From: Felis catus
Taxonomy: Eukaryota
DNA: 64,000 nt
NCBI RefSeq assembly: GCF_018350175.1
Contig: NC_058377.1
Coordinates: 16,492,001-16,556,000, forward strand
Direction: 5' to 3'
Part shown: positions 560-25,170 of the stretch, in pieces
Position numbering within the stretch: the stretch's first letter is position 1
Layout: each line of letters begins with the position of its first letter
The notes under the pieces: model-generated
The model's input: only the letters and a program-made list of their open reading frames with translations
The model's database searches: none
What the model was told of the DNA's origin: nothing
Program-made: the position numbers and the translations under genes

Positions 560-1400
560 CCCAAGCCCCCAAATGAAAGCGTAGGGGGTTGAGGAGAGAC
601 GTCGCATGAGTACCGGGTGGAGGCCAGAGGCGATTAAAGGCGTCAAATTGGGGACTCTCCACACCTGAGCTGGCGCCAACTAACCAGATCGAGCCCGTGG
701 AAGTGAGGAAGTGGTGCGAGGCCTTCAGCCCCGGACTCTCCCACCCCCTGCCGGGCGACCTCTCCTCTCCCTGAAGGTGGACCTGAAACTCCAGCACCTC
801 GACCTCTGGGCCAGCCTCCATGGCCAGGTTCCGGGCTTGCTGGACTGGGACATGGGCAACGAGTCGTTCCTGGCCTTCACCACCGCGCACCTGCCCCTGG
901 CCGAGCAGAACCGTGAGTGCGTGGGGGGCGGGGAGGCGTGGGGGAGGGGCGTGGTGGGCGCCCGGGTGGGGTGTTCGCGGGGCTCCCGGCCCCTTGGCCC
1001 CCAGCCCCCCCACCTTCGGCCCGGCGGACTAGCTGGGCGCCCGAGTGCGGTTTCGTGATCCGGGCCCCCCCCTCCCCCCACCGCGGCCGAGCGGGAGCCC
1101 CTCCGAGCCCCACCCCCACCCCAACCCGGGCCATGGCGACGCTGGCCTCGACCCAGAGCCCCCAGGAAGTGGGTCCCGCCACAGCACACCGCCTGCCACC
1201 TCCACCCCCACCGTCCGCTGCGTCCCAGAACCTTCTAGGCCTCACCTCGGCCCTTTTCCCATGGTGCCTACCGCCATTTGGCGCGCCACGAACATTTTTT
1301 GAAATGTTATCGGTTTTGTTCGAGGCTGTACCCCCACCCCCACCCCCGTTAGTACATTGGCTGACACCTAGAGGTGCTCGATATTTGCCGAACGGATGGT
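560..1400 (+). promoter_or_regulatory. CpG island / FOXR1 promoter and first exon
   Basis: GC- and CpG-rich stretch spanning exon 1, with an E2F-like TTTGGCGCGCC at about 1277-1287. Boundaries approximate. Confidence 0.7.
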
Positions 1401-4400
1401 TGGCCGTTTTGGTCTTTTAAAAAAATGATTTTTTTCTTTGGACCTCAAAGGCAGAGGCAAAGACGATCCCCTCCTATGTTCGTGGTATATTATTGCCATC
1501 TGGTCAGGCAAGGTCCTTGGATTAACCCCTTACCCCCACTTCAGTGCACCCACCTCCACCCCCACCCTGCCTTCCATCACCTCGCACACTCCCTCGTATC
1601 TACCCTAAGTGATTTAATGTCTTTAGATAGGTTTATCTTTGAAAACGATTTAACGTTATTTTATGTTTATAGACGACCTTCATTTACTTAGTGCTCATTG
1701 CTTTTTTGTGCCTACTCGCATTGTTTTTGAGAGCTGCTCAGGCTGCTGCATGAAGGTCTGGTTCATTATTTCTGATGGCTGGGTGGTATTCTGTTATCTG
1801 CATATACTACCTTTTGCATGTACCTTGCTGATGGAGACCTGGATCGCCTCCAGCTCTCTGCCACCATAAGTAATGCTAAGGAATTCCTGTATCTTCGTTG
1901 ATTAACAAATATTTATTGAGCACTTGTAATTTGCCAGGCAGTGTTCTAGACACTCGTGGTACATAATGAACAGAACAGATAATCTATATGGAGCCTACGT
2001 TCCACTGGGGGCAGACAATCCACATAAAAATATATCTACAGTATAAGGTGATAACTGAGATGGGGGAGAAAGGATACAGTAAGAGGGCTCAGGAATGTGG
2101 GGAGGTGGCGACAGCCACGGTTTTAAATAGGGTCATCAGGTTGGGCTTCCTTGGGAACATAACCTTGGAGCAGAGAGTTGAAGGGTATTTAGAGGAAAAA
2201 TTTCCCAGGCAGAAGAAATAGCCAGGGCAAAAGTCCTAAGGAAGGAATATGTCTGGAGTGTTGGAGGCGCAGGAAAGAGGCCAGTGAATCTGGATGAAAG
2301 TAAATACAGAGGGAAGTTCAGAGCATGTGGAGCAGAGATCAGGACGAGCCCATCTTCCACTCTAAGGACTTTGGGGTTGACTTTGAGGTTGAAAGGTTTT
2401 GAGCAGTGGAGTGCCCTGATTCAGGCTTCCCAAGTGTGTGACCCATGTAGTTGCTTCCTCTGCTGGAGGAATAGTTTTCTATCTATTACAGGATATATAG
2501 GAGGATAATTTCTAACTTGAGATCATTTTAATTTTAGAACAAGGAACCCCTCGTTTTCACTTTGCACTGGGCTCTGCAAATTAGGTAACCCAATCCTGCA
2601 TGATCTATACTTTGAAAAGATCACTTCGGCTGCTGTGTGGAGGGTACATTGTAAACGTAGAAGAAGCCAGCAGACTAGAAGGCTACTACTGTAATCCAGA
2701 CCAGAGATGGTGGTAGGCTGGACCCTTAGGGTGGTGGCAGAGAAGGCAGAACCTGCTGGGTTGGCTGATGGATCGGATGTGGAGTGTATGAAAGAGAGAG
2801 GATGACTCCTCCAAAGTTTTTGGCTGATCCAGTGAAAGGATGGAGTACTGAGATGGGGGAAGCTTCTGGTCGGACAGAGAGAAAGATCAGGAATTCTGTT
2901 CGGGACCTGCTGAGTTTGAGGATACTTTTTAGATTTCCAAGCAAAAATGTTGAGTGAGCAGGTAGACGTGTAAGTCTGGAGTACTGGAGAGAGGTTTATT
3001 TTGAGAGTCCTTGGTATGTGGGTGGCGTTTAAAGGATGAGAAGAGAGAAGAGAGAGAAGGACCAAACATGAGCCCTGGGGACATTCCATTGTAAAGATAC
3101 TGGAGAGAAGAGAGATAACCAGCCCAAACTAAGGAAATGACCATTGAGAAGCAAAACCAAGAAACCGTGGTTTCCTGGAAACAAGTGAAAAAAGTGTGTC
3201 ATGGAAGGACTGGTCAGATGAGAGGACTACCCCTGTGAGGTCAGGTGGGAGGTACACGGACAATTTGGTTTAGCAAAGCAGACATCATTGGTGACCATGA
3301 TGATGGTGGGGTGGTGGAGACGAAAGCCTGACTGGCAAGGGCTTAAGGGTGGAAGGAGGGGAAGTGGGATCCGAAAGAATAGGTAGTTCTTTTGAGGAGT
3401 TCTGCCTCAAAAGAAAGCAAAAACATAGGGCAGTGGCCTGGCACAGAAAACCAGGGCAAAAGGTCTTTTCAATAAGATGAGAGAATTAACATCGTGTTTG
3501 AATGCTAATAAGAATAATCCAGTAGTAAATACACACACACACACACACAAATAACAGGAAATAGAGGAGTGGTTGGTTGGAACATTATCCCTGAGAAGGC
3601 TCAAGAGCATCTGTGCCAGGGAGGGAGGGAGGGAAACAGAGACACTATGCTCTGATCTCCCTGAGATCACCAACCTGTTGATGTCACCCTTTTTTTTCCT
3701 GCTCTCGAGCCCTGGGTGTTTTTCCTTCTTTAACCAACCTGTAATCCTGTGGTCAAACATGCTCTCCATCAATTCCTTTGACCCTCTCTGGCTTTGGAGC
3801 ACTTGCTTGGCCAAACCACCACCCCGATTAAATCCAACTCTACCAAAGAGTACACCAAAGCCATAGACCAACGGATTGGTGATATCATGGTATCCAAGGA
3901 TAGTTGGAGTGGGGAGAGAGTTAGCTGGAAAGATAGGTGAAGTATGTTTTTTTAATTTGTTTATTAAAGTGGGGCACCTGGGTGGCTCAGTCTGTTAAGC
4001 GTCCGATTTTGTATTTTGGCTCGGGTCATGATCTCATAGTTTGTGAGTCCGAGCCCTGCATGAGCTCGGTGCTGACAGTGCAGAGCCTGCTTGGGATTCT
4101 CTCACTCACCTCTCTCTCTCTACCCCTACCCCACTTACTCTCTCTCTCTCTCAAAATAAATAAACTTAAAATTTTTAATTTGTTTGTTAAATCAGTTAAT
4201 ATCTACACTCAACTGATCATACCAGAGAAGGTTAGCATATAAGTTCCCCTACTGACTTGAATAGACACACCCAGGAGTAGACCTTGATGTCTTGAATCAG
4301 CCCTTCACTGTGATAGCACCAGCTGCTGTTCAGATCTGCAGTATGAGAAAGGATTCTTTTCTAGTTCCCTGCATCTTTGCCGACACTTGGGATTATCTGT

Positions 4401-7400: not shown

Positions 7401-10400
7401 ACNNNNNNNNNNNNNNNNNNNNNNNNNNNNNNNNNNNNNNNNNNNNNNNNNNNNNNNNNNNNNNNNNNNNNNNNNNNNNNNNNNNNNNNNNNNNNNNNNN
7501 NNNNNNNNNNNNNNNNNNNNNNNNNNNNNNNNNNNNNNNNNNNNNNNNNNNNNNNNNNNNNNNNNNNNNNNNNNNNNNNNNNNNNNNNNNNNNNNNTCAG
7601 TCAGGGAAAGACAAATATCTTATGACTTTACTCATATGAGGACTTTAAGAGACAAAACAGATGAACCTAAGGGAAAGGAAGCAAAAATAATATAAAAACA
7701 GGGAGGGGGACAAAACATAAGAGATTCTTAAATACGGAGAACAAACACAGGGTTGCTGGAGGGGTTGTGGGAGGGGGGATGGGCTAAATGGGTAAGGGGC
7801 ACTAAGGAATCTGCTCCTGAAATCATTGTTGCAATATATGCTAACTAATTTGGATGTAAATTTAAAAATAAATTAATTAAATTAAAAAAAAATTTTTTAT
7901 ATTTTCCAGTTTCTTCATGCTGCTATGGAGGAACAGTGATTAGTATTTGTTCTTATATCCAGCAAACTTTCTAGGCTCTTGTCGGTTCTGATAATTTGTC
8001 TATCGATTTTGTATGGTTTCTGTCTTAACATTTTTTTCTACAAATAATGCTAGTTTTGCCTTTTTCTTTCTGACTTTATATCTGTTTCTTTCTGACTTTA
8101 TATCTCTTTCTACTTTTTCCTCTTTTCAATACTATGTTGGACATTATTATTTTTTTTTAATTTTTTTTTTAACGTTTATTTATTTTTGAGACAGAGACAG
8201 AGCATGAATGGGGGAGGGTCAGAGAGAGGGAGACACAGAATCCGAAACAGGCTCCAGGCTCTGAGCTGTCAGCACAGAGCCCGACGCGGGGCTCGAACTC
8301 ACGGACCGCGAGATCATGACCCGAGCCGAAGTCAGCCGCTTAACCGACTGAGCCACCCAGGCGCCCCTGTTGGACATTATTATTAATGAAATGGGCATTC
8401 TTTCTAATTACTGAGCTCTCTAATAAGTATATCATCATTTTCCAGACAAAAACCTAGATTCAACTGCAATATGATGACACCCAATGGGTCCTTTTGGAGG
8501 GGGGGTGAGGTGGAAATAGTTGCCACTAACCCCCAAGGAGCCAGCATAGGGCCAAGCAGATAGCTCTAATATACACTCGATTTACTCTTTTTCTTTTTTC
8601 TTTTACTGTTCCTTTTTATTTTTTAGTATTTCATGGTACAGAGGGACCACAGTTTGTTTACAGTTCACCCACTGGAGGACATCTGGGTCACTTCTGGTTT
8701 TTGGCTAATACGATTAAAGCTGCTCTGAACATTATCATACAGATATTTTTTTAATTTTCACAAATGATTTTATAATTTTTTTAAATATAATTTAGTCTCA
8801 AATTGGTGAACATACAGTGTGTAAAGTGTGCTCTTGGTTTTTGGGGTAGATTCCCCTGGTTTTTCACTTACATACAACACACAGTGCTCATCCCAACAAG
8901 CGCCCTCAATGCCCATCACCCATTTTCCCGTCTCCCCCAGCCCCCCATCAACCCTCAGATTGTTCTCTGTATTTCAGAGTCGCTTGCGGTTTGCCTCCCT
9001 CCCTCTGTTTATAACTATTTTTCCCCTCCCCTCCCCCATGGTCTTCCGTTAAGTTTCTCAAGATCCACATATGAGTGAAAACGTATGATTTACTCTTAGC
9101 CCACCACGTATTCATTCATCCAGTTAAGCTGAGCTCCTCCAGGTTAAGCTGAGCTCCTCCCGTGTGCCAGGCAGTGAAAAAGACAGTCCTGGTGATTGGC
9201 TCTAAGCAAAGTAATTAGGATAAAATGTGTGTTAGGGAAGTGTTTGGACAGGCAGAGAAGGCCTGCTTTAGAAAGATGTTTCAACAGAGACATGATGAGT
9301 GAATAGCAATTAACTAGGGCAGCGGGAAGAGAGAAGAGTGTATCTGGCAAAGACACAATAGTTTGTGGGGAGGCCCGGGATCTAGAGTGTGGTCTGTTGG
9401 AGACCTGGAGAGCCTGGGAGGAATGACCCAACACTGATGAGGAGCCAGGGCCTTGCAGACTGTCCCAAGAAACTTCAGTTTGGCCCAAGGGTCATAGAAA
9501 GCCATCAAAAGTGTTTAAACAGAAAGGTGACAGGATTGCATTAATATTTTAGGAAGATGCTCCAGCTGCAGGGGGACTAAGTTGGAGAAAAGCAGATAAA
9601 CAGACCATTCGGGTTATGGCTGGACTTGGGGATTGACTGGGTGTGGCTGGATGGGAAAGAGAAGGCAAGAACACTTCCGTGTTCCTGACCCAAGCCACTT
9701 AGGTTAGATGGTGGTGCCACTTGCGGAGACAAATACAGGAGCGAGAGCAGGAAGGTGGAGTTTAGTTGCAGGAATGTGGAGTCTGAAGTACCTGCGGGTT
9801 ATGCAAGGAAAGATCTCCAAGGCCCAGTGGTACTTACGGGCAAGCAGAGGAGTCTGGGGCCGGAGGTGCGGATTTGGAAGCCCTACGTTGATAGATAGTG
9901 GCTGAGGCCACAGGCATTCATGAATTGGCTCAGGGACAGTGTATGTGGAACAAGGTCAGAGAAGTCGAATATGGTGTCGTAACGCCCCAGGGAGGGCCCA
10001 CAGCCACGTGGTCCAGGACCCTGGGGCCACAGTGGAAATACTAGGACATTTTGACCCTCTTCTTTCTTTTTGCCAGTTGCCAGGTATAGACTTCGAATAG
10101 TTGAACCACCAAAAGTACCTGTGGGAAAAACGCCCAACTCTGATAAAGATGGTGAGTGGGGGTAGTGGGTTCTCTGGCATGGTCATGCGGCCTGGGCCGG
10201 ACCCCAAAGCCAGTGAGCTGTGGCGCACAACCTCCTTTTTCTCTGCACAGGCCCAGCTCTTGAGCCCAACCTGTGGATGTGGGTAAACCCCAGCATCGTG
10301 TATCCCCCCGGAAAGCTGGAGGTCCCAGAACCTCATAAGGGAGAGGATCTCCCAGGCGCACTCCCCTCCCCTCAGCCAGCCCCCAAAGAGGAAGACTTTG

Positions 10401-12798
10401 CCAGCTCCTCAGAGACCACGGCGGTGGAGTCACTGCCACCATCCTCGCCCTCCAGCGAGCAGTCTCCCCCTCAGAAGCGGTTTGCCTCTTCCCCCAGCAC
10501 CTGGGAGGTAGGAGTTTCTGGGGTCCTGGGCTGGACTTGGGCTGGACTTGGGCTGTAGGCAGGGAGGGTGCAGGGATGATGCGATCAGAGAGGGATCCTT
10601 AGGGACCACCGAGGGCTAACGGGTTCAGAAATGGGCTGTGCCCTTGGGTTGGGGAGAAGCCCCGATGAGGGCCCCCTACCACTCCCCCTCCCTGCCACTG
10701 CACCCCTGGAGTAGAGGCGGTGGAGTTAGGACCAGTTCCTACTCTGTGCTCCTCTAGCTCACAGAAGAGGAGGAGGCTGAGGACCAGGATGACAGCTCCT
10801 CTGTGGCTCTCCCGTCCCCTCACAAAAGGGCCCCCCTCCAAAGTCGGAGGTTTCGGCAAGCCAGCAGCCAAGAGGGGAGGCTCTGGTCCCGGCCCCCTCT
10901 CAATTACTTCCACCTCATTGCACTGGCATTAAGAAACAGTGCCCCCTGTGGCCTCAACGTGCAACAGATCTACAGTTTCACTAGGTACGTGCCCCGGGGC
11001 AGGGGGGCCCTGTAAGGACGGGACGGGAGGGGGTCAGGGCCCTCAGACTGACACCTTCCAAGCTGCCCCTGGCCCTGGGCTGCTGCCTCAGTTCCCCCAT
11101 CTGGGTCTGAAAGGATAAGTGTGTTCCCAGGCCTCCTTCCCCAGACACTGGTACTGCGCTGTCCCCAGGTGGGTGTCCACGTATCCTGTGTTAGGGAAGA
11201 CATCCACCTCCACCCCCTTTCACGTCTAGAAAACCCTAACCGTTTTACGTCTTAGTCCCTTAAAACGTAAATTCGCCTGGGTCAGAAATTCTCCCATCCT
11301 CCCCGTCAAGATTATCCAGTAGAAAATCTGGTTTCGCCAGCAGTTTCTCACATGCTCTCCCTTTGGCTAGACTGCCTGGCACAGGTCCCCGCACGCCCAG
11401 GGGAGCAGGGGGGCACCCGGCTGAGAAGGGATGTGCATTTAGCTTCGACAGTCGCCTACACGTGAGCGTGAGGGGTTTCTCAGACCCTTTCCCTCTGGCA
11501 GGAGAGTCTCAGAATATTAATCCACAAGCGGCATCCTTCCTTGACCAGGATTCCTCTTACAGGCATGGGTTGGCCTGATTCTGGTCCGTTCACGTCACAA
11601 GTCACAGTCATGAGCCCTCAGAGGGAAGCAGGACAAAATGAGTCTCGGAACGGGAGCAGTAAACTGGGTTTAAAAGACGAGGGTTTGTGGGGTGCCTCGG
11701 GTGGCTCAGTCAGTTGAGCGTCTGGCTCTTGATTTCAGCTCAGGTCGTGATCCCAGGGGCTTGGGGTCAAGCCCCACATTGGGCTCCATGCTCAGCATGG
11801 AACCTGCTCGGGATTCTCTCTCTCCCTCCCTCTGCCCCTGTCCCCTGCTCGCTCTCTCGCTCTCTCTAGAATTAAAAAAAAACAATGAGGGTTGGCACAA
11901 GCAACACACCGGGTCAGGCTTTGCCGCGTGCTCCGTCAGCAGAGAGCTGTTCCAGGCCAGCCTGCCACCGTCCACCTTGACAGAGGGGCCCAGGCTCCTG
12001 GCGCCTGGGGGACAACCGTCTCGAGATGGGGCGTCTCCCGAAGACAGCATATCTTTCCTCACCGTTCCCCCCTGTCCACAGACAGCATTTCCCCTTTTTC
12101 CGGACGGCCCCGGAAGGCTGGAAGAATACCGTCCGTCACAATCTCTGTTTCCGAGACAGCTTTGAGAAAGTGCCGGCCAGCGTGCAGGGTGGCGCCGGCA
12201 CACGGCCCCGCTCCTGCCTCTGGAAGTTAACCGAGGAGGGACGCCGCCGCTTTGCAGAGGAGGCCCGCGCCTTGGCCTCCAGTCGGCTGGAGAGCATCCA
12301 GCGGTGCATGAGCCAGCCAGGTGTGAGGCCCTGGCACGCGTGGGGCCGAGGGGCGCCCCCCTCCCCCCCCATCCTGACGCTAGGGGAAGGAGACCGGGTC
12401 CCACGGTGGGGGCGGGGGACACCTTCTGTAGGAAGGGGAGGGGATAGCGGTGGTCCGAGACCTGGGCCTGCCCCAGGTGGGACCCCAGCCACCCAGGCAT
12501 GTACTTGAGGTCCAGGAGTTGACGGAGAAACAGCTGAGGTGCAGTTGGCCTCACGGCCCGGCAGCCTAGGGAAAGGGTGGCGGCGCAGCGAGAGACGCAC
12601 GGTATGAGCGGCGACGTGCAGAGGAGGTTTCTTTTCTTTTTCCGGAGACCGGGTGGCATTTGGGCCTTGAAGGGAAAAATAGGTCATCTGCCGCGAGGTT
12701 GGGCCAGGCTGAGGGAACGGCAGCCGCAAAGGGCAGGTAGATTCTGTTGACTCTCTTCTTTTCTTACAGATGTGATGCCCTTCCTCTTTGACCTTTAA
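852..12798 (+). CDS. FOXR1: Forkhead box protein R1 (6 coding exons, 295 aa from the AUG)
   Basis: Exons 852-912, 10077-10151, 10251-10507, 10758-10984, 12082-12320, 12770-12798. All introns are GT-AG with consistent phases, 888 nt total. The protein [11 protein letters not shown]...[10 protein letters not shown]...[16 protein letters not shown]...[21 protein letters not shown]...DVMPFLFDL matches recalled FOXR1, including the forkhead domain. ATTAAA at 12829-12834. Confidence 0.95.
4905..5136 (-). mobile_element. CAN-SINE (felid SINEC_Fc type)
   Basis: tRNA-derived head GGGGCACCTGGGTGGCTCAGT, CT-rich region and A-tail on the minus strand. Confidence 0.9.
5400..7224 (-). mobile_element. 5'-truncated LINE-1 (carnivore type), antisense in FOXR1 intron 1, partly in N-gaps
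   Basis: ORF2 C-terminal remnants ([24 protein letters not shown]; [15 protein letters not shown]), 3'UTR and A-tail, flanked by AACAGTACCTT copies. Confidence 0.9.
7257..7892 (+). mobile_element. 5'-truncated LINE-1 3' end, sense orientation
   Basis: [24 protein letters not shown] remnant, then an L1 3'UTR and A-tail homologous to the neighbouring antisense copy. Confidence 0.9.
8151..8367 (-). mobile_element. Young CAN-SINE with TSD
   Basis: Intact element flanked by the direct repeat TGTTGGACATTATTA. Confidence 0.9.
8780..9095 (-). mobile_element. LINE-1 3'UTR fragment
   Basis: Similar to the carnivore L1 3' end seen at 5410-5700. Confidence 0.6.
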
Positions 12799-18029: not shown

Positions 18030-18800
18030 CAGTGTCTGATGCGGGTCCTTGACGATGCCCCGACATGCGTGCGATTTGTGGTCCTGCGGTGTCACCTGTT
18101 GCGTGTGTCCTTTCCGTGCATCTGTACAGTGGTGCTGCCACTTTTTCTAGGTAGACGGCATCTGGGGATCTTGAGGATGGCTGGGTCTGCGCGTCTACGG
18201 GGAGCCCCGGAAAGGACTCGCGCAGCCGCAGAAGGGCCTGCAGTGGCGCCTGCCGGCCGCTGGGGGCCGCAGGGGCGCTGGGTTCGCCCCGCCCCCGAGG
18301 GGTCAGGGGTCACCGAATGGCCGGAGATCGGCCGGTCGTCGCGGGTACCCAGTCTTGGGCCCATGGCGCCCGCGCAGCGTTGTCCTCTGTGCCGCCAGAC
18401 CTTCTTCTGTGGTCGCGGACACGTGTATAGTCGCAAGCACCAGCGGCAGCTGAAGGAGGCTTTGGAGCGGCTCCTGCCCCAGGTGCGGGCGGGAGGCGGA
18501 AGGGGGCCGCGGACCGCCTGGGGGCGGGGATGCGGGCCTTGCGGTGAGAGCGCGAGGGTGTGGGGTGCGGGGGGTCCTGGGGTCCTGTACGGCCTCTCCC
18601 CGCCGCAGGTGGAGGCCGCCCGCAAAGCCATCCGCGCCGCTCAGGTGGAGCGTTACGTGCCGGAGCACGACCGGTGCTGCTGGTGCCTGTGCTGCGGCCG
18701 TGAGGTGCGGAAACACCTGAGCCACGGAAACCTGACCGTGCTGCACGGGGGGCTGCTGGAGCATCTGGCCAGGTGAGAAGCGGCCTGGGAGCCTCATCCA
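18030..18800 (+). promoter_or_regulatory. CpG island at the CENATAC 5' end
   Basis: High CpG density over exons 1-2 and upstream. Confidence 0.7.
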
Positions 18801-21800
18801 GCCCACTCGCCTACTTGTGTGGGAGGGAGGGTTTAGGAGTCGGGGAGAGGAAGAACGCTTTGGTGGTTTGATGAGGGTAGATTGAGTCACCTTTAGGCAT
18901 TGCATTCTTTAGGGGTAGAAGGGTTTATGGCTTGCATGGCCCCAGTGGTAGTGGTGGGAAAGCCAGCTGGGTAGCTGGCTCGGCATTACCTCCCATCGTC
19001 TATCAGATGCCTCTATTTTTCTTGGAAGAGGGAGACTGGACATCTGGAAGAGACTGATAACAGTATCGTCAGCCTTGCCCAGAGGCAGAAACCCCGATGT
19101 CAGTGTGCACTACGCATCTGATGTCTGCATAGCTGAGTAATATTTTGTAATAGATCATTGAGATTATTCCTTCCTTCTCAGCCCGGAGCACAAGAAAGCA
19201 ACCAACAGATTCTGGTGGGAGAACAAGGCAGAGTTCCAGATGAAAGAGAAGTTTCTGATCTCCTCCCAAGACTATGCACGGTAAGTCATTGGTAATGAAA
19301 GGTGAACTAACAGAATAGGGCTTCTCTGGGTCTGTGTCAGGTTCTAGAGCTTCCTCTAATTGGAAAATTCAGTAGGGACTTCATAAGTATCTATCGTTTT
19401 CATAGCACTCATGGTGCCAGGTACTATACTGGACACAAAAGTATGACAGTCCTTGAAAGGTTTATATCTACTTGGGGGGGTGGGATTTACAATGCATTAG
19501 CAAATGGAGAATAGTATATAACAAAAATTGACTATAACCAACCATTTAAATGCGTGGTACAGAGAAGATAAAGTCCTTTAGAAATAGAACAGGCTTTTTA
19601 TAGTGTGCAAGAAACTGGTACTCCCCCAGTGTCAATAGTTTTAGACTATTTTAACTGGCCTCTGAAGGACCCTGAGAAACTGGAGTGCAGGAAGCTGGTC
19701 AGCACGGAGTGGGGGTGAGTGCTGACTGCTTCAGAAAGAGGACACAGGCAGCCTCACACTACGTCTATTGGGACTATATTGAGATTATGGGGTACGGAGC
19801 CCAAGGGGATCCCAGAGCCAAAGTTACAAAAAAACTCATGTCTGTTCTTCTCAGTGTGGAGAATGATAAGGGGATGATAAGAAATGCCTAAAACTTACTA
19901 CCTTGCCTTCAAATCTGTGGTTCATACAGGCAGGAGATGGGAAACTGAGGCCAAAAAGCACTCACTCCTTACATCCTGACCCAGCTCCAGATGGTTTTGG
20001 TGGGTGAATAAAGGATAGCTGAACAGAAAAGGTTATAATTGAGAATTGCGAGGATGGACACTTTGAACTTTTTTTTTTTTAATGTTTATTTATTTTTGGG
20101 ACAGAGAGAGACAGAATGCAAGTGGAGGAGGGGCAGAGAGAGAGAGGGAGACACAGAATCTGAAACAGGCTCCAGGCTCTGAGCTGTCCAGCACAGAGCC
20201 TGATGCGGGGCTCGAACCCATGAACCGTGAGATCATGACCTGAGCTGAAGTTGGACACTTAACCGACTGAGCCACCCAGGCGCCCCTGAACTTTTTATTA
20301 GTCTTGACTTTTGAATCTTATAAATTTCAAGGTCACACGCACAAGGCAAAACCAAGCCTAATTTGACCAGCAAAGATACCATGAGCCCTCTTTAGACTGT
20401 TCATTACATACACAGCAAAAAGAATACACCTCAAGTCCCACCAGAAAGAACCACTCTGAAACAAAAAGAGCTAGCTAACTGCAGTGTGAGCATGAGACAC
20501 CCTGCTGCTGGGAGCCCAGTCTGGCCTACAGCTTTAATCTGAGTGGGCAGAAAGCAGCATACTGCCATCAGAGCCCGGAGGTGATGACAGACTCTCATGA
20601 CAGCCTGGGGGTGTTGGGGGAGATCAGGAGGTGAGTGGCAGATGGCCCCACAGCAGCTTTTCAGCTCTCCCATCCTCTTGTATTCCAGGGGCATCACACA
20701 AGCGTTCGGCTAAGACTCTGATGCTACAGTTCTAGGCTTCGCCCGTATGGATAGGCACAAGGCTGCCAGGGCACCGTGGTAGAGCCATTCCCTCAGCATT
20801 TTACATACTCAAATCAGGCCAGAAAGCAACTCCTAAAATTAATTGCAAACAGTGACAAGTTATCATAGCTGTATATAAATTGGTATCACAAAAGAATAAG
20901 AATTTAAGTAACTTGAACACAAAATTCTGACCGTATACCCTCAAGAAGGCTATTTTAAAAAAAAATTTTTTTTTAACGTTTATTTATTTTTGAGACAGAG
21001 ACAGAGCATGAACAGGGGAGGGGCAGAGAGAGAGGGAGACACAGAATCCGAAACAGGCTCCAGGCTCTGAGCTGTCAGCCCAGAGCCCGACGCGGGGCTC
21101 TGACTCACGGACCGCGACATCATGACCTGAGCTGAAGTCGGACGCTTAACCGACCAAGCCACCCAGGCGCCCCAAGAAGGCTATTTTTTAAGGACTAAAA
21201 AACTGCAAAGAAATTGAGGCTTGCTTAGTTTTTTTGTGATAGTGGTATCCGTAGTATTGGTATTATTCTGATACCTTTACATGCGTATGTAAGATAAAAA
21301 CAACTGCAAGTATATTGGTGGTGTTGCAAATATGGACCAATTCAAAAGGATAATTGATCAAAAAGGATAATTGATTTTTTAAAAAAAAATGTTTTGACTA
21401 CACATGTGCACGTTGGGGGTTGGGGAGAGAGAGAGAATCCCAAGCAGGCTCCATGCTCAGCACAGAGCCCAGTGCAGGGCTCGATCTCAAAACCACGAGG
21501 TCATGACCTGAGCTGAAATCAAGAGTCGGACCTTTACCTGATCACCCAGGTGCTCTGATCATTGATTTTCTTACGTATGGTAATGGTTTCATGGTATCTT
21601 AGGCTCTTCCTGTTCTTAGGTGCATGCCGAAGTTTTCAGTTAAGTCTCATGATGTTCTAAAGCCCATTTTTGATTTGGAAAAAGGAAATGTTTGCATAGA
21701 AGAGAAGTGGAGCCAGTATGGCAAAATGTTAACAGTGAATCTGGTTGAAAGGTACATTGGTGTTCTTTGTTCTATTTTGATTTTGAAATTACCAAAATTT

Positions 21801-24800
21801 AAAGAAAAAGTGATCTGAAGGTCTTTTCATAACTGGCAGGGATCGCCTTGGCTGACTTGCCCTTTTTCTTTAGATTCAAGAAATCCATGGTGAAAGGTTT
21901 GGATTCCTATGAGGAAAAAGAGGATGAAGTAATCAAAGAGGTGAGTTAAAAGAAAGGCCTCTGGAGGACCCAACCTTACAACCTTGTACCTAGCTAAGCA
22001 GCCTCTCTCCCACAGATGGCAGCTCAGATCCGTGAGGTGGAGCACAGCCGGCAGGAGCTGGTTCGGTCTGTCTTAGAGGTTGGTTTCCCTCGGAGGAGCC
22101 AGAGCAGTATCCAAATCCATTTGATCCCTGGTTCTCCCAGGTCCAGCATTTCACCTACCAGCTCTTCTAAGAGAACTCATGGACTCCATGCTTCATCTGC
22201 TCAGCTTCAATTCCCTTAACTGTCTGCCAGGGGGGCAGGCCTTGTCAGTGGCAATGTGGGCAAGGCAGGGAAGGGGGGAGGGAAGGAGGGAGGGAAGGAG
22301 GGAAGTTTGCGAGGACAGTACCCTCTATATGCTAGTTCCCTTCTGAAGGGTGGGAGCATGGCCAAGACAGACTGTTAAAGGGTCCTAGACACATTTATTT
22401 TTCCTGAATCAAACTCAGCCTCAGGCAGTGCCAGACCCAGAAGAAGGCTCTTCAGCGCTTGGAAGCTGGAAAGGGACCAACAGGTAAACTTGTTAAGGAC
22501 TCTTGTTGAGAGTCTGACATGTTAGAGCCTTCTGTAACTTTCTGGCTGGGAAATGGGAACAAAGTTCATCTGTGCCATCCTCATGTCTCAAGGACCTCAT
22601 CTGCCAGCCTGGCTCCTGTCTTGTCTTTTTCAGTCAAGTGGCCTCCGCCTCGCAGCAGCCTTCCTACTTGGACCTACCACCAGCAGCCCCGGAGCTTGAC
22701 TGGATGGAAACAGGACAACCTTTGACATTCATTGGCCATCAGGTACAATGGATAAGCCAGCCAGGAAGGGCCAATGCCCCCTTAGTTCCCAGGACACCCA
22801 TCTCTCCTGGGTTTTGTACCTATTCTAACCCTTCCTACCTTCTTTTCTGTGTTGTTCCATAGTATGTTCTCAGACACATTTCCTCACCCTCCAGTGATCT
22901 CATCACACCTTTGCCCCAATGCCTAGATCTCATCCTTTGCAAAACCCCCAAGTCCCACTCAGTGTAGGATATCTATAAATATCCCATAAGCACTTGAAGC
23001 TAACCTCTACCATTCTATTATTCTATTAACTGTGGATGAGTTATTTCCTCTTCCATCTCCTACCTCCTGTCAACAAGGTCTGTTTTATTACCTGACTAGA
23101 AGATGGCCTCCAGATACATATACTTTCCCACAAGTTTCCATTCCTCCTGCACTCCTGTCCCAAACACAGAAAGTCACTGCTTCACCTATTCTTATGTTGT
23201 ATACGCCAGCCATATTGTGCTTCCTGTTTTTGCACATGTAGTTATCATTGCCTTAAATAATGTTTACCTTCCTTCAGCCTAGTTCAAATGTCACCTTTTC
23301 ATGGAATGATTATCTGAACAGGTTGCCTGTTATAAGTGTACTCAGTACCATGTAAAAAGCTGCAAATATAATGTGTGATTTATGCTTAATTCTCTTCCCC
23401 TATGATACATATGCCCTGTGAGTAAAGGGTTTTGCTTACCGGCATCTAGCAGGCATTCTATTTTTGGACATCTTCATTACAGAGACTCAGAAGTCTCTTG
23501 AGGACAAGACTGTTTCTCAGTTATCTGTGCTCTTAGGATTTAACATCAAACCAGGGCACAGAACTAGCACTTGTAGTGCTTCCACTACCCGTCCCCCCCT
23601 CCTGTGGTTTGTCATTTCTCTAGCTAGGAGTATCCACCCTGTCCTGGCTTCTCATCTGGGATTTTTCCCCTCCATTTCTAACTACAGGACACGCCAGGAA
23701 TTGGTAATATCCACTCAGGTAAGGCCTAAGGCAGTGTTTCTCAGATGGTAAGAAACAATTATTTTAAAGAATAAAACTGATTAAGTACTACCGGGGGCCC
23801 CTGGGTGGCTCAGTCAGTTAAGCTCAGGTCATGATCTCATTTTGTGAGTTTGAGCCCCATGTTGGGCTCTGCACTGACAGTGCAAAACCTACTTGGGTTT
23901 CTTTCTCTCCCCCTTTCTGCCCTTCCCTTACTCGCATTACCTCAAAGTAAATTTAGAAAAAATTTTAAAGTACAGTATGGAGTACTATCTTGTGGATAAC
24001 AAGATAGAGTTGTATCTTGAATACATGAAGAACTCTCAAAACTCAGAAGTCATGTAAAAAGATGCTCACCAGTGGCTAAAATTAAAGATGCACTGTGTTA
24101 ACGCTCATATACTGCTATCAAGAATGTAAAATAGCAGAACCAATTGGAAAATGGCTCAGGAGTTTAAAAAAGCTTACCTGCACACAGGCTTGCAACACAC
24201 ATGGTCACAGCTTTATCTGTAGTACCTCCAAGCTGAAAACGACCCATACGCCCCTCAACAAAGCAACGACAGAGTAGTGCCCAACAAGGAAGGAACTATT
24301 AAGTGCAGCATAGATAAATCTCAAAACTGTTAGAAGCCAGACCAAAACCAGGTACGTCCTAGAAAATGCAAACTAGAGTAACAGAAGCAAACCCATGGTT
24401 CCCTGAGGCTGTGAACAAGGATATGGGGAGGTACAGGAAATATTTCTAAAGGTTTTTCTTTTCAGATTGTACACTTTCAATGTGTGCAGCTGTATGTCAA
24501 TTATGCCTCAACAAAGGTATTAAGTATCAGCACATCATATCACATGTAAGGTGTGTTGCTTTAAATTAGTCCAGGGCCCTCAACTTCCCAAGGTCCTGAG
24601 TCTTGTTTTTGAACATTTCTAGTTATCAATCAGTTAAGAGCTTTTACCTAGGACAGTTTCACAGTAGCCTAAAACTTAGAGTGCCTTAATTTCTGCTGAA
24701 TGGGTCTTTTCCAGGAGCTACACCTCCCTGGATGGTCCAAGATGAGGAATACAGCTCTGGAAACCAACAAATAGGGCCCTCCTATGAAGAATTTCTTAAA

Positions 24801-25170
24801 GAAAGTAAGTAAAAAAAATTCCAGAGTGGGAATGGGTTAAGTTTCCCTACTCAAATAAAACTGTTTACTTCTTTGTAGAAGAAAAACAGAAATTGAAGAA
24901 ACTCCCCCCAGACAGAGTTGGGGCCAACTTTGATCACAACACCAGCACCAGTGTAGGCTGGCTGCCCTCTTTCGGCCGCGTCTGGAATAATGGACGCCGC
25001 TGGCAATCTAGGTATGGGCCCAGTGCCAGGACCCCAACCCACTACCCCTTTGGAGAGATCTCAGCCTTCATCCTGTTAACCCTTCACTTTCTTTCAGACA
25101 TCAATTTAAAACGGAAGCTGCGGCAAGGAGCAAACAGTCACATAAAGAAAAAAAGCCAAATGTTTCCTGA
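18363..25170 (+). CDS. CENATAC: Centrosomal AT-AC splicing factor (CCDC84), 11 exons, 337 aa
   Basis: Exons 18363-18482, 18609-18772, 19182-19280, 21874-21940, 22016-22078, 22419-22483, 22634-22742, 23688-23718, 24715-24804, 24879-25011, 25098-25170. Total 1014 nt, phases consistent. Protein [27 protein letters not shown]...[22 protein letters not shown] matches recalled CCDC84. Confidence 0.95.
20068..21556 (-). mobile_element. Three antisense CAN-SINEs in CENATAC intron 3
   Basis: Elements at about 20068-20286, 20965-21173 and 21400-21556. Confidence 0.85.

Follow-up and report, generated by a model that had tools for sequence, protein, structure and literature searches.

It is very likely that the GTG codon at 777–779 of the window (the whole 64,000-nucleotide stretch of Felis catus DNA analyzed here; all features of the FOXR1 gene given below lie on its + strand) stands where vertebrate FOXR1 ancestrally had its start codon, and that scanning ribosomes initiate there to produce a FOXR1 protein of 320 aa. 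Comparative sequence evidence points to the 25 codons between this GTG and the annotated ATG (777–851) being most likely translated from the GUG in placental FOXR1, and databases and laboratory constructs probably hold too short a protein. The first-pass annotation of this DNA had proposed that the true FOXR1 is GUG-initiated. Conservation and transcripts support the initiation, but to call the long form "the" true FOXR1 goes too far: in most lineages a short form is probably made as well, from ATG852, whose context is strong.

The gene was recognized as the FOXR1 orthologue by its forkhead domain, its six coding exons, and its neighbors UPK2 and CCDC84; the same synteny is described for FOXR1 in the accessible part of PMC6109588. 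Exon 1, as covered by spliced contigs, spans 460–912, with contig 5′ ends at 460, 486, 504, and 546 and a donor after 912. It is followed by exon 2 (10077–10151, whose first 30 bases are what the contigs carry beyond 912), exon 3 (10251–10507), exon 4 (10758–10984, where the forkhead domain begins), exon 5 (12082–12320, forkhead domain), and the coding part of exon 6 with the stop codon (12770–12798). Across the six coding exons, reading from the GTG gives 320 aa and reading from the ATG 295 aa, with a common stop ending at 12798; the earlier estimate of "about 320 aa" thus proved exact. The beginning of FOXR1 in the window agrees with felid database proteins. These are mostly 295 aa long and the human reference (P0347) 292 aa, both read from the downstream Met.

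On re-reading the sequence, we found AAG-GTG-G at 774–780, with A at −3 (774) and G at +4 (780), in frame with the annotated ATG at 852–854 and free of stops in between, and the peptide was the one reported in the first pass. ATG852 has G at both −3 and +4 and encodes Met26 of the long form. The GTG777 frame is limited upstream by a TAA ending at 683, and an ORF scan of the window found no in-frame ATG between 684 and 851; a second in-frame GTG, at 711, has a G−3/G+4 context and an open frame. An out-of-frame ATG with U at −3 (820–822) lies within His-Gly codons, and its 38-codon frame overlaps ATG852 and ends at 10100, in spliced exon 2. Three short upstream ORFs occupy 508–668, beginning at ATG508 (22 aa), ATG573 (3 aa), and ATG606 (20 aa, in the GTG frame, with a stop ending at 668). 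The first-pass annotation mentions neither these four ATGs nor GTG711, nor the acceptor-like sequence in front of 777. A hairpin 14 nt 3′ of GTG777 was considered as an enhancer and rejected (−26.5 kcal/mol, z −0.47, 58 of 200 shuffles equally good); because it is no more stable than shuffles, we assign it no role.

Conservation of the 25 codons was assessed at the protein level. A protein search with window 777–911 gave 53 proteins among 72 candidates, and two profile searches added further ones. The 95 proteins covering the segment, sorted by name or by eye, comprised 49 placental FOXR1, 45 FOXR2, and one marsupial record; the rows are non-independent, and species with a broken extension cannot appear in a protein search. 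Residues 2–25 had a mean ungapped identity of 0.79 in 14 placental FOXR1 records, each chosen to represent one apparent lineage. The same 14 records gave 0.68 for annotated residues 27–45, a figure lowered by one deletion. Over positions −15 to −2 upstream of the valine encoded by the GTG, their mean identity was 0.19 (indels lower the figure). The favorable-context near-cognate codon therefore sits at the edge of conservation, with identity of 0.19 upstream versus 0.79 downstream. An upstream motif lies in the frame of the valine in marmoset and in another frame in this genome (frames compared by eye), so the coding frame is not maintained above the valine. The orthologues retain the frame and residues of 777–851; the frameshifts and stops that had been named in advance as grounds for rejection were absent, with the proviso that protein retrieval favors intact copies.

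Window 777–911 also matched named FOXR2 proteins at 59%–76% identity over 45 aa, with E-values down to 2e-12, and by these figures the similarity is not due to chance. An independent measure comes from the 120-mammal PhyloCSF score of +42.4 (42.39) reported for the 50 human FOXR1 codons that precede the AUG (ENST00000317011.7; PMC10764858), of which the extension makes up only half; its 75 nt lie in human at chr11:118,971,857-118,971,931. Several other analyses added little. A DNA search with 600–912 matched solely the FOXR1 locus itself; the search for orthologous DNA in metagenome contigs yielded nothing beyond short stretches of weak similarity at 10 loci (E 1e-4 to 6e-4), which were set aside; in Pfam, no family covers the extension; and AlphaFold2, given the Met-start protein of hedgehog and 26 alignment rows, was uninformative, with pLDDT of 43–49 over residues 1–50. 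The conserved pattern of W, L, H, L, and W invites the guess that the extension might bind a partner.

In placental FOXR1, the first column of the alignment holds V in 40 of 49 records and M in the other nine, never I, L, or A. In FOXR2 it is M in all 45 records, in line with the earlier claim that the GUG aligns with the FOXR2 initiator Met, and a primate FOXR2 (P0049) agrees through position 26 with the human FOXR2 start that the first-pass annotation had given. It is also M in 15 out of 15 aligned non-placental FOXR1, which were picked by eye for a full N-terminus from a profile search of 1.84 billion representatives (a later-starting record, P0185, was omitted). Eleven of these are named: Tasmanian devil, gannet, Komodo dragon, Lacerta, Heteronotia, axolotl, Hyperolius, coelacanth, lungfish, gar, and icefish. 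In the non-placental proteins, the annotated placental Met corresponds to the internal M of a D-W-D-M motif.

Some caution applies to how these letters are read. The alignment tool displays an initial GTG as M by rule, and an M printed by that rule carries no evidential weight; three of the nine placental M records (P0002, P0019, P0020) are predictions of gene callers on contigs, which may have translated a GTG as M. Named records with Met at column 1 are those of hedgehog, Phodopus, Dipodomys, Perognathus, and Mastomys, and in Mastomys the residue is internal and is therefore a true ATG. The triplet was read as GTG at the DNA level only in the window and in felid-like contigs; the other valines could be any GTN. 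From this distribution we infer that placental FOXR1 replaced its AUG by GUG and that annotation slid to the next Met. In rodent FOXR2 (P0293, P0296, P0300), K directly precedes the Met, as K precedes V in FOXR1, which suggests that the A−3 context may be older than the FOXR1/FOXR2 duplication.

Met26 is less constant. It is retained in 37 of the 49 placental FOXR1 records and replaced by L, W, or F in the remaining 12 (six out of six afrotherian, three pangolin-type, jerboa, and two unnamed). Since it is freely lost while the preceding segment stays intact, Met26 cannot be an obligatory start. The context of the upstream codon is kept as well. In the 27 records that read through the valine, the preceding residue is K (23), T (3), or N (1); all codons for these residues begin with A, so A stands at −3 in 27 out of 27, a constraint backed by no more than about three independent changes at the −1 codon. 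Residue 2 is D or E in all 49 placental FOXR1, which places G at +4.

Transcripts cross the candidate start. Contigs of runs X5, X6, X9, and X13, from four studies, run unbroken from 546, 504, 460, and 486, respectively, to 912 and continue into exon 2. Spliced transcripts thus reach 231–317 nt upstream of 777, and the transcription start downstream of 777 that had been named as a possible refutation was not found. These were four of eight runs; X2 and X4 gave unspliced contigs (running into the intron), and X20 and X23 yielded no reads. The library type of the four runs is unrecorded, though their contigs are spliced; assembly into contigs loses rare isoforms, and contig ends are no guide to start sites.

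The same transcripts bear on a competing explanation, in which the 25 codons are coding but internal, with an unannotated upstream exon carrying an AUG and spliced to the AG before GTG777. A pyrimidine run plus AAG at 759–776, continuing as AAG|G to 777, does resemble a 3′ splice site, and ten database models carry other residues before the valine, about nine of them apparently spliced (bats, whale, pangolin, and five afrotherians). The leader peptides of the spliced models are mutually non-homologous, however, even among the five afrotherians, as expected if models invent an exon to find a Met; database models add unrelated first exons where Met26 is missing. The contigs examined showed no use of the acceptor-like site: all four spliced contigs pass through 777, none has a loose end there, and the spliced Logan protein P0160 likewise reads through. 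Neither T nor N has a codon ending in AG, so the 4 of 27 records with T or N before the valine have no AG at this place, and the acceptor is lost in some lineages. The human annotated FOXR1 leader is a single 225-nt block (PMC10764858 supplement), and FOXR2 and outgroup FOXR1 begin at the V/M column. Taken with these observations, a hidden upstream exon is very unlikely.

According to another reading, the segment is what remains of the ancestral coding start, by now an untranslated leader conserved as DNA or RNA, and AUG852 is the sole real start. In favor of it are the strong context of ATG852, the 292-aa length of the human reference, the nuclear localization of a 292-aa construct and its use in target-gene work (in the accessible text of PMC8559929), and the lack of any Ribo-seq or peptide listing of FOXR1 in the searched supplements of PMC9789052 and PMC11317171. 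Such a leader does not sit well with a protein identity above that of the adjoining annotated residues, with a positive PhyloCSF score, with the loss of Met26 in several lineages that keep the segment intact, or with the reappearance of Met at column 1, and we consider it extremely unlikely. Translation of the extension mainly from another upstream codon is just as improbable: GTG711 has G−3/G+4 and an open frame, and murid records P0023, P0027, and P0031 run from a Met 56 codons upstream through the valine, but the counterpart of that Met here, ATG606, is cut off by the stops ending at 668 and 683, conservation ends at the valine, and the upstream frame varies between species.

Returning to initiation at GTG777, the scanning model of translation is established knowledge and provides the basis for the steps that we propose. 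With A at −3 and G at +4, part of the scanning complexes would start at the GUG with initiator Met-tRNA, and the remaining complexes would leak to the out-of-frame AUG820 or to AUG852, the latter giving the 295-aa form. A weak GUG, together with the short upstream ORFs at 508, 573, and 606 in long leaders, would hold down the output of full protein. Where Met26 is lacking, as in afrotherians, pangolins, and jerboa, the column-1 codon would be the only start yielding an intact N-terminus.

A broader scenario goes further. The 320-aa GUG form would be the main working FOXR1; the change from AUG to GUG would postdate the origin of the FOXR2 copy and act as a brake on dosage; AUG would have returned in several lineages; and in afrotherians, pangolins, and jerboas, initiation would have become obligately non-AUG through the loss of Met26. 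We regard this as a real possibility with slightly less than an even chance of being correct. The tumor RPS25 fusion joins FOXR1 at exon 2 and so is without the extension (PMC5141358), and fusion-bearing lines depend on FOXR1 (accessible text of PMC8338889); the extension is therefore dispensable for activity there. CRO-AP3 cells, by contrast, reportedly transcribe FOXR1 starting with its native exon 1 (PMC5141358).

Non-AUG extensions have precedents. EIF4G2 uses GUG. Exclusive non-AUG starts are reported, in the part of PMC9789052 open to us, for EIF4G2, TRPV6 (ACG), TEAD1 (AUU), and STIM2 (UUG). These genes and the conserved extensions of Ivanov et al. 2011 (PMC3105428) share with FOXR1 a near-cognate codon in good context and conserved in-frame coding sequence before an annotated AUG. 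FOXR1 differs from them in that its candidate start codon can be traced to an ancestral AUG, which FOXR2 and the non-placental species retain; initiation there would accordingly restore an old N-terminus rather than add a new one.

The locus itself has been flagged before. Human FOXR1 appears in a list of 177 genes whose sequence before the AUG evolves like coding DNA (PMC10764858, an addendum to Fedorova et al.), and the PhyloSET candidates (PMC10764858 and the accessible text of PMC9789052) thus include the same locus as a likely extension. The FOXR1 row of the PhyloSET table, in contrast to our analysis, names no start codon (PMC10764858), and start placement was not attempted for the set, according to the available text of PMC9789052. 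The PhyloSET material at hand (PMC10764858 and part of PMC9789052) gives no FOXR2 or outgroup homology, annotated-AUG loss, or AUG reversions for FOXR1. Outside the subscription literature, we found no paper that names the GUG of FOXR1, matches it to an ancestral AUG, or notes that the annotated AUG has been lost. Within the searchable literature, the extension is already flagged in one table row, but its start is neither placed nor explained. FOXR1 had zero matches in those supplements that were searched from PMC9789052 (Ribo-seq), PMC11317171 (proteomics), and PMC3105428, possibly because the cells sampled express it at a low level.

The closest relative is FOXR2 (FOXN6). The FOXR1 extension (777–851) corresponds to residues 1–25 of its FN56 region (aa 1–69, limits from the accessible part of PMC11753994), and FOXR2 differs in starting with Met in every one of its 45 records. 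FN56 is called unique to FOXR2 and its orthologues in that part of PMC11753994; judged from the alignment, a long FOXR1 would carry FN56 whole. For FOXR2, MYC/MAX and EPC1/2 are reported as partners or targets. The available text of PMC9437574 does not state the position of the MYC-binding region in FOXR2, and because this region could not be placed, we make no claim that the extension binds MYC.

FOXR1 has been tied to brain development and tumor fusions (PMC8559929, PMC5141358, and PMC8338889, as far as their accessible text goes). The main functional study treats it as a 292-aa protein cloned from the downstream ATG (accessible text of PMC8559929), so a conserved N-terminus common to the oncogene FOXR2 is absent from that construct. 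If the 320-aa form is the main FOXR1, work on the 292-aa protein, including the microcephaly variant study, used a protein without the most conserved part of the N-terminal domain, and variants in the 75 bases now counted as "UTR" are coding. A corrected start would alter placental FOXR1 annotation, variant interpretation, and construct design. FOXR1 would also offer a clean case for following a start codon from AUG to GUG and its return to AUG; the paralogue and the outgroups, which start with AUG, would serve as controls.

Several observations concern upstream codons and related loci. ATG606 and its first codons resemble the murid upstream in-frame Met, and in this genome a stop follows after 20 codons. 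The conserved upstream AUG may serve as a regulatory uORF in some lineages and as a longer start in murids, and the open in-frame AUG 56 codons upstream may add a longer FOXR1 form in rats and mice. Searches with whale and dog FOXR2 queries did not find an intact FOXR2 in this genome; the gene is present in seal and dog, and the missing match could reflect lineage loss, an assembly gap, or a search miss. We noted two decayed processed FOXR1 copies (L025 1507-1794, G000 C2; L027 1906-2256, G000 C42), in which exons 5 and 6 are joined and interrupted by in-frame stops; within the stretches examined, they hold exons 5–6 only and nothing of the 5′ part of the mRNA.

Around the gene, exons matching CCDC84 lie at window 18606–25152 on the + strand, 3′ of FOXR1, as expected for this neighbor, and UPK2 (L028 1448-2801) lies on the same strand about 7–8.5 kb upstream of the window. 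Bat and Mastomys database models fuse UPK2 to FOXR1 exon 2, skipping exon 1 (P0094, P0113, P0133, P0134, P0139). Finally, felid FOXR1 isoforms in databases begin in intron 1 (window 1432–1490 and 9708–9866) and continue into exon 2 (P0335, P0340, P0342, P0104); such isoforms would be without the entire conserved N-terminus.
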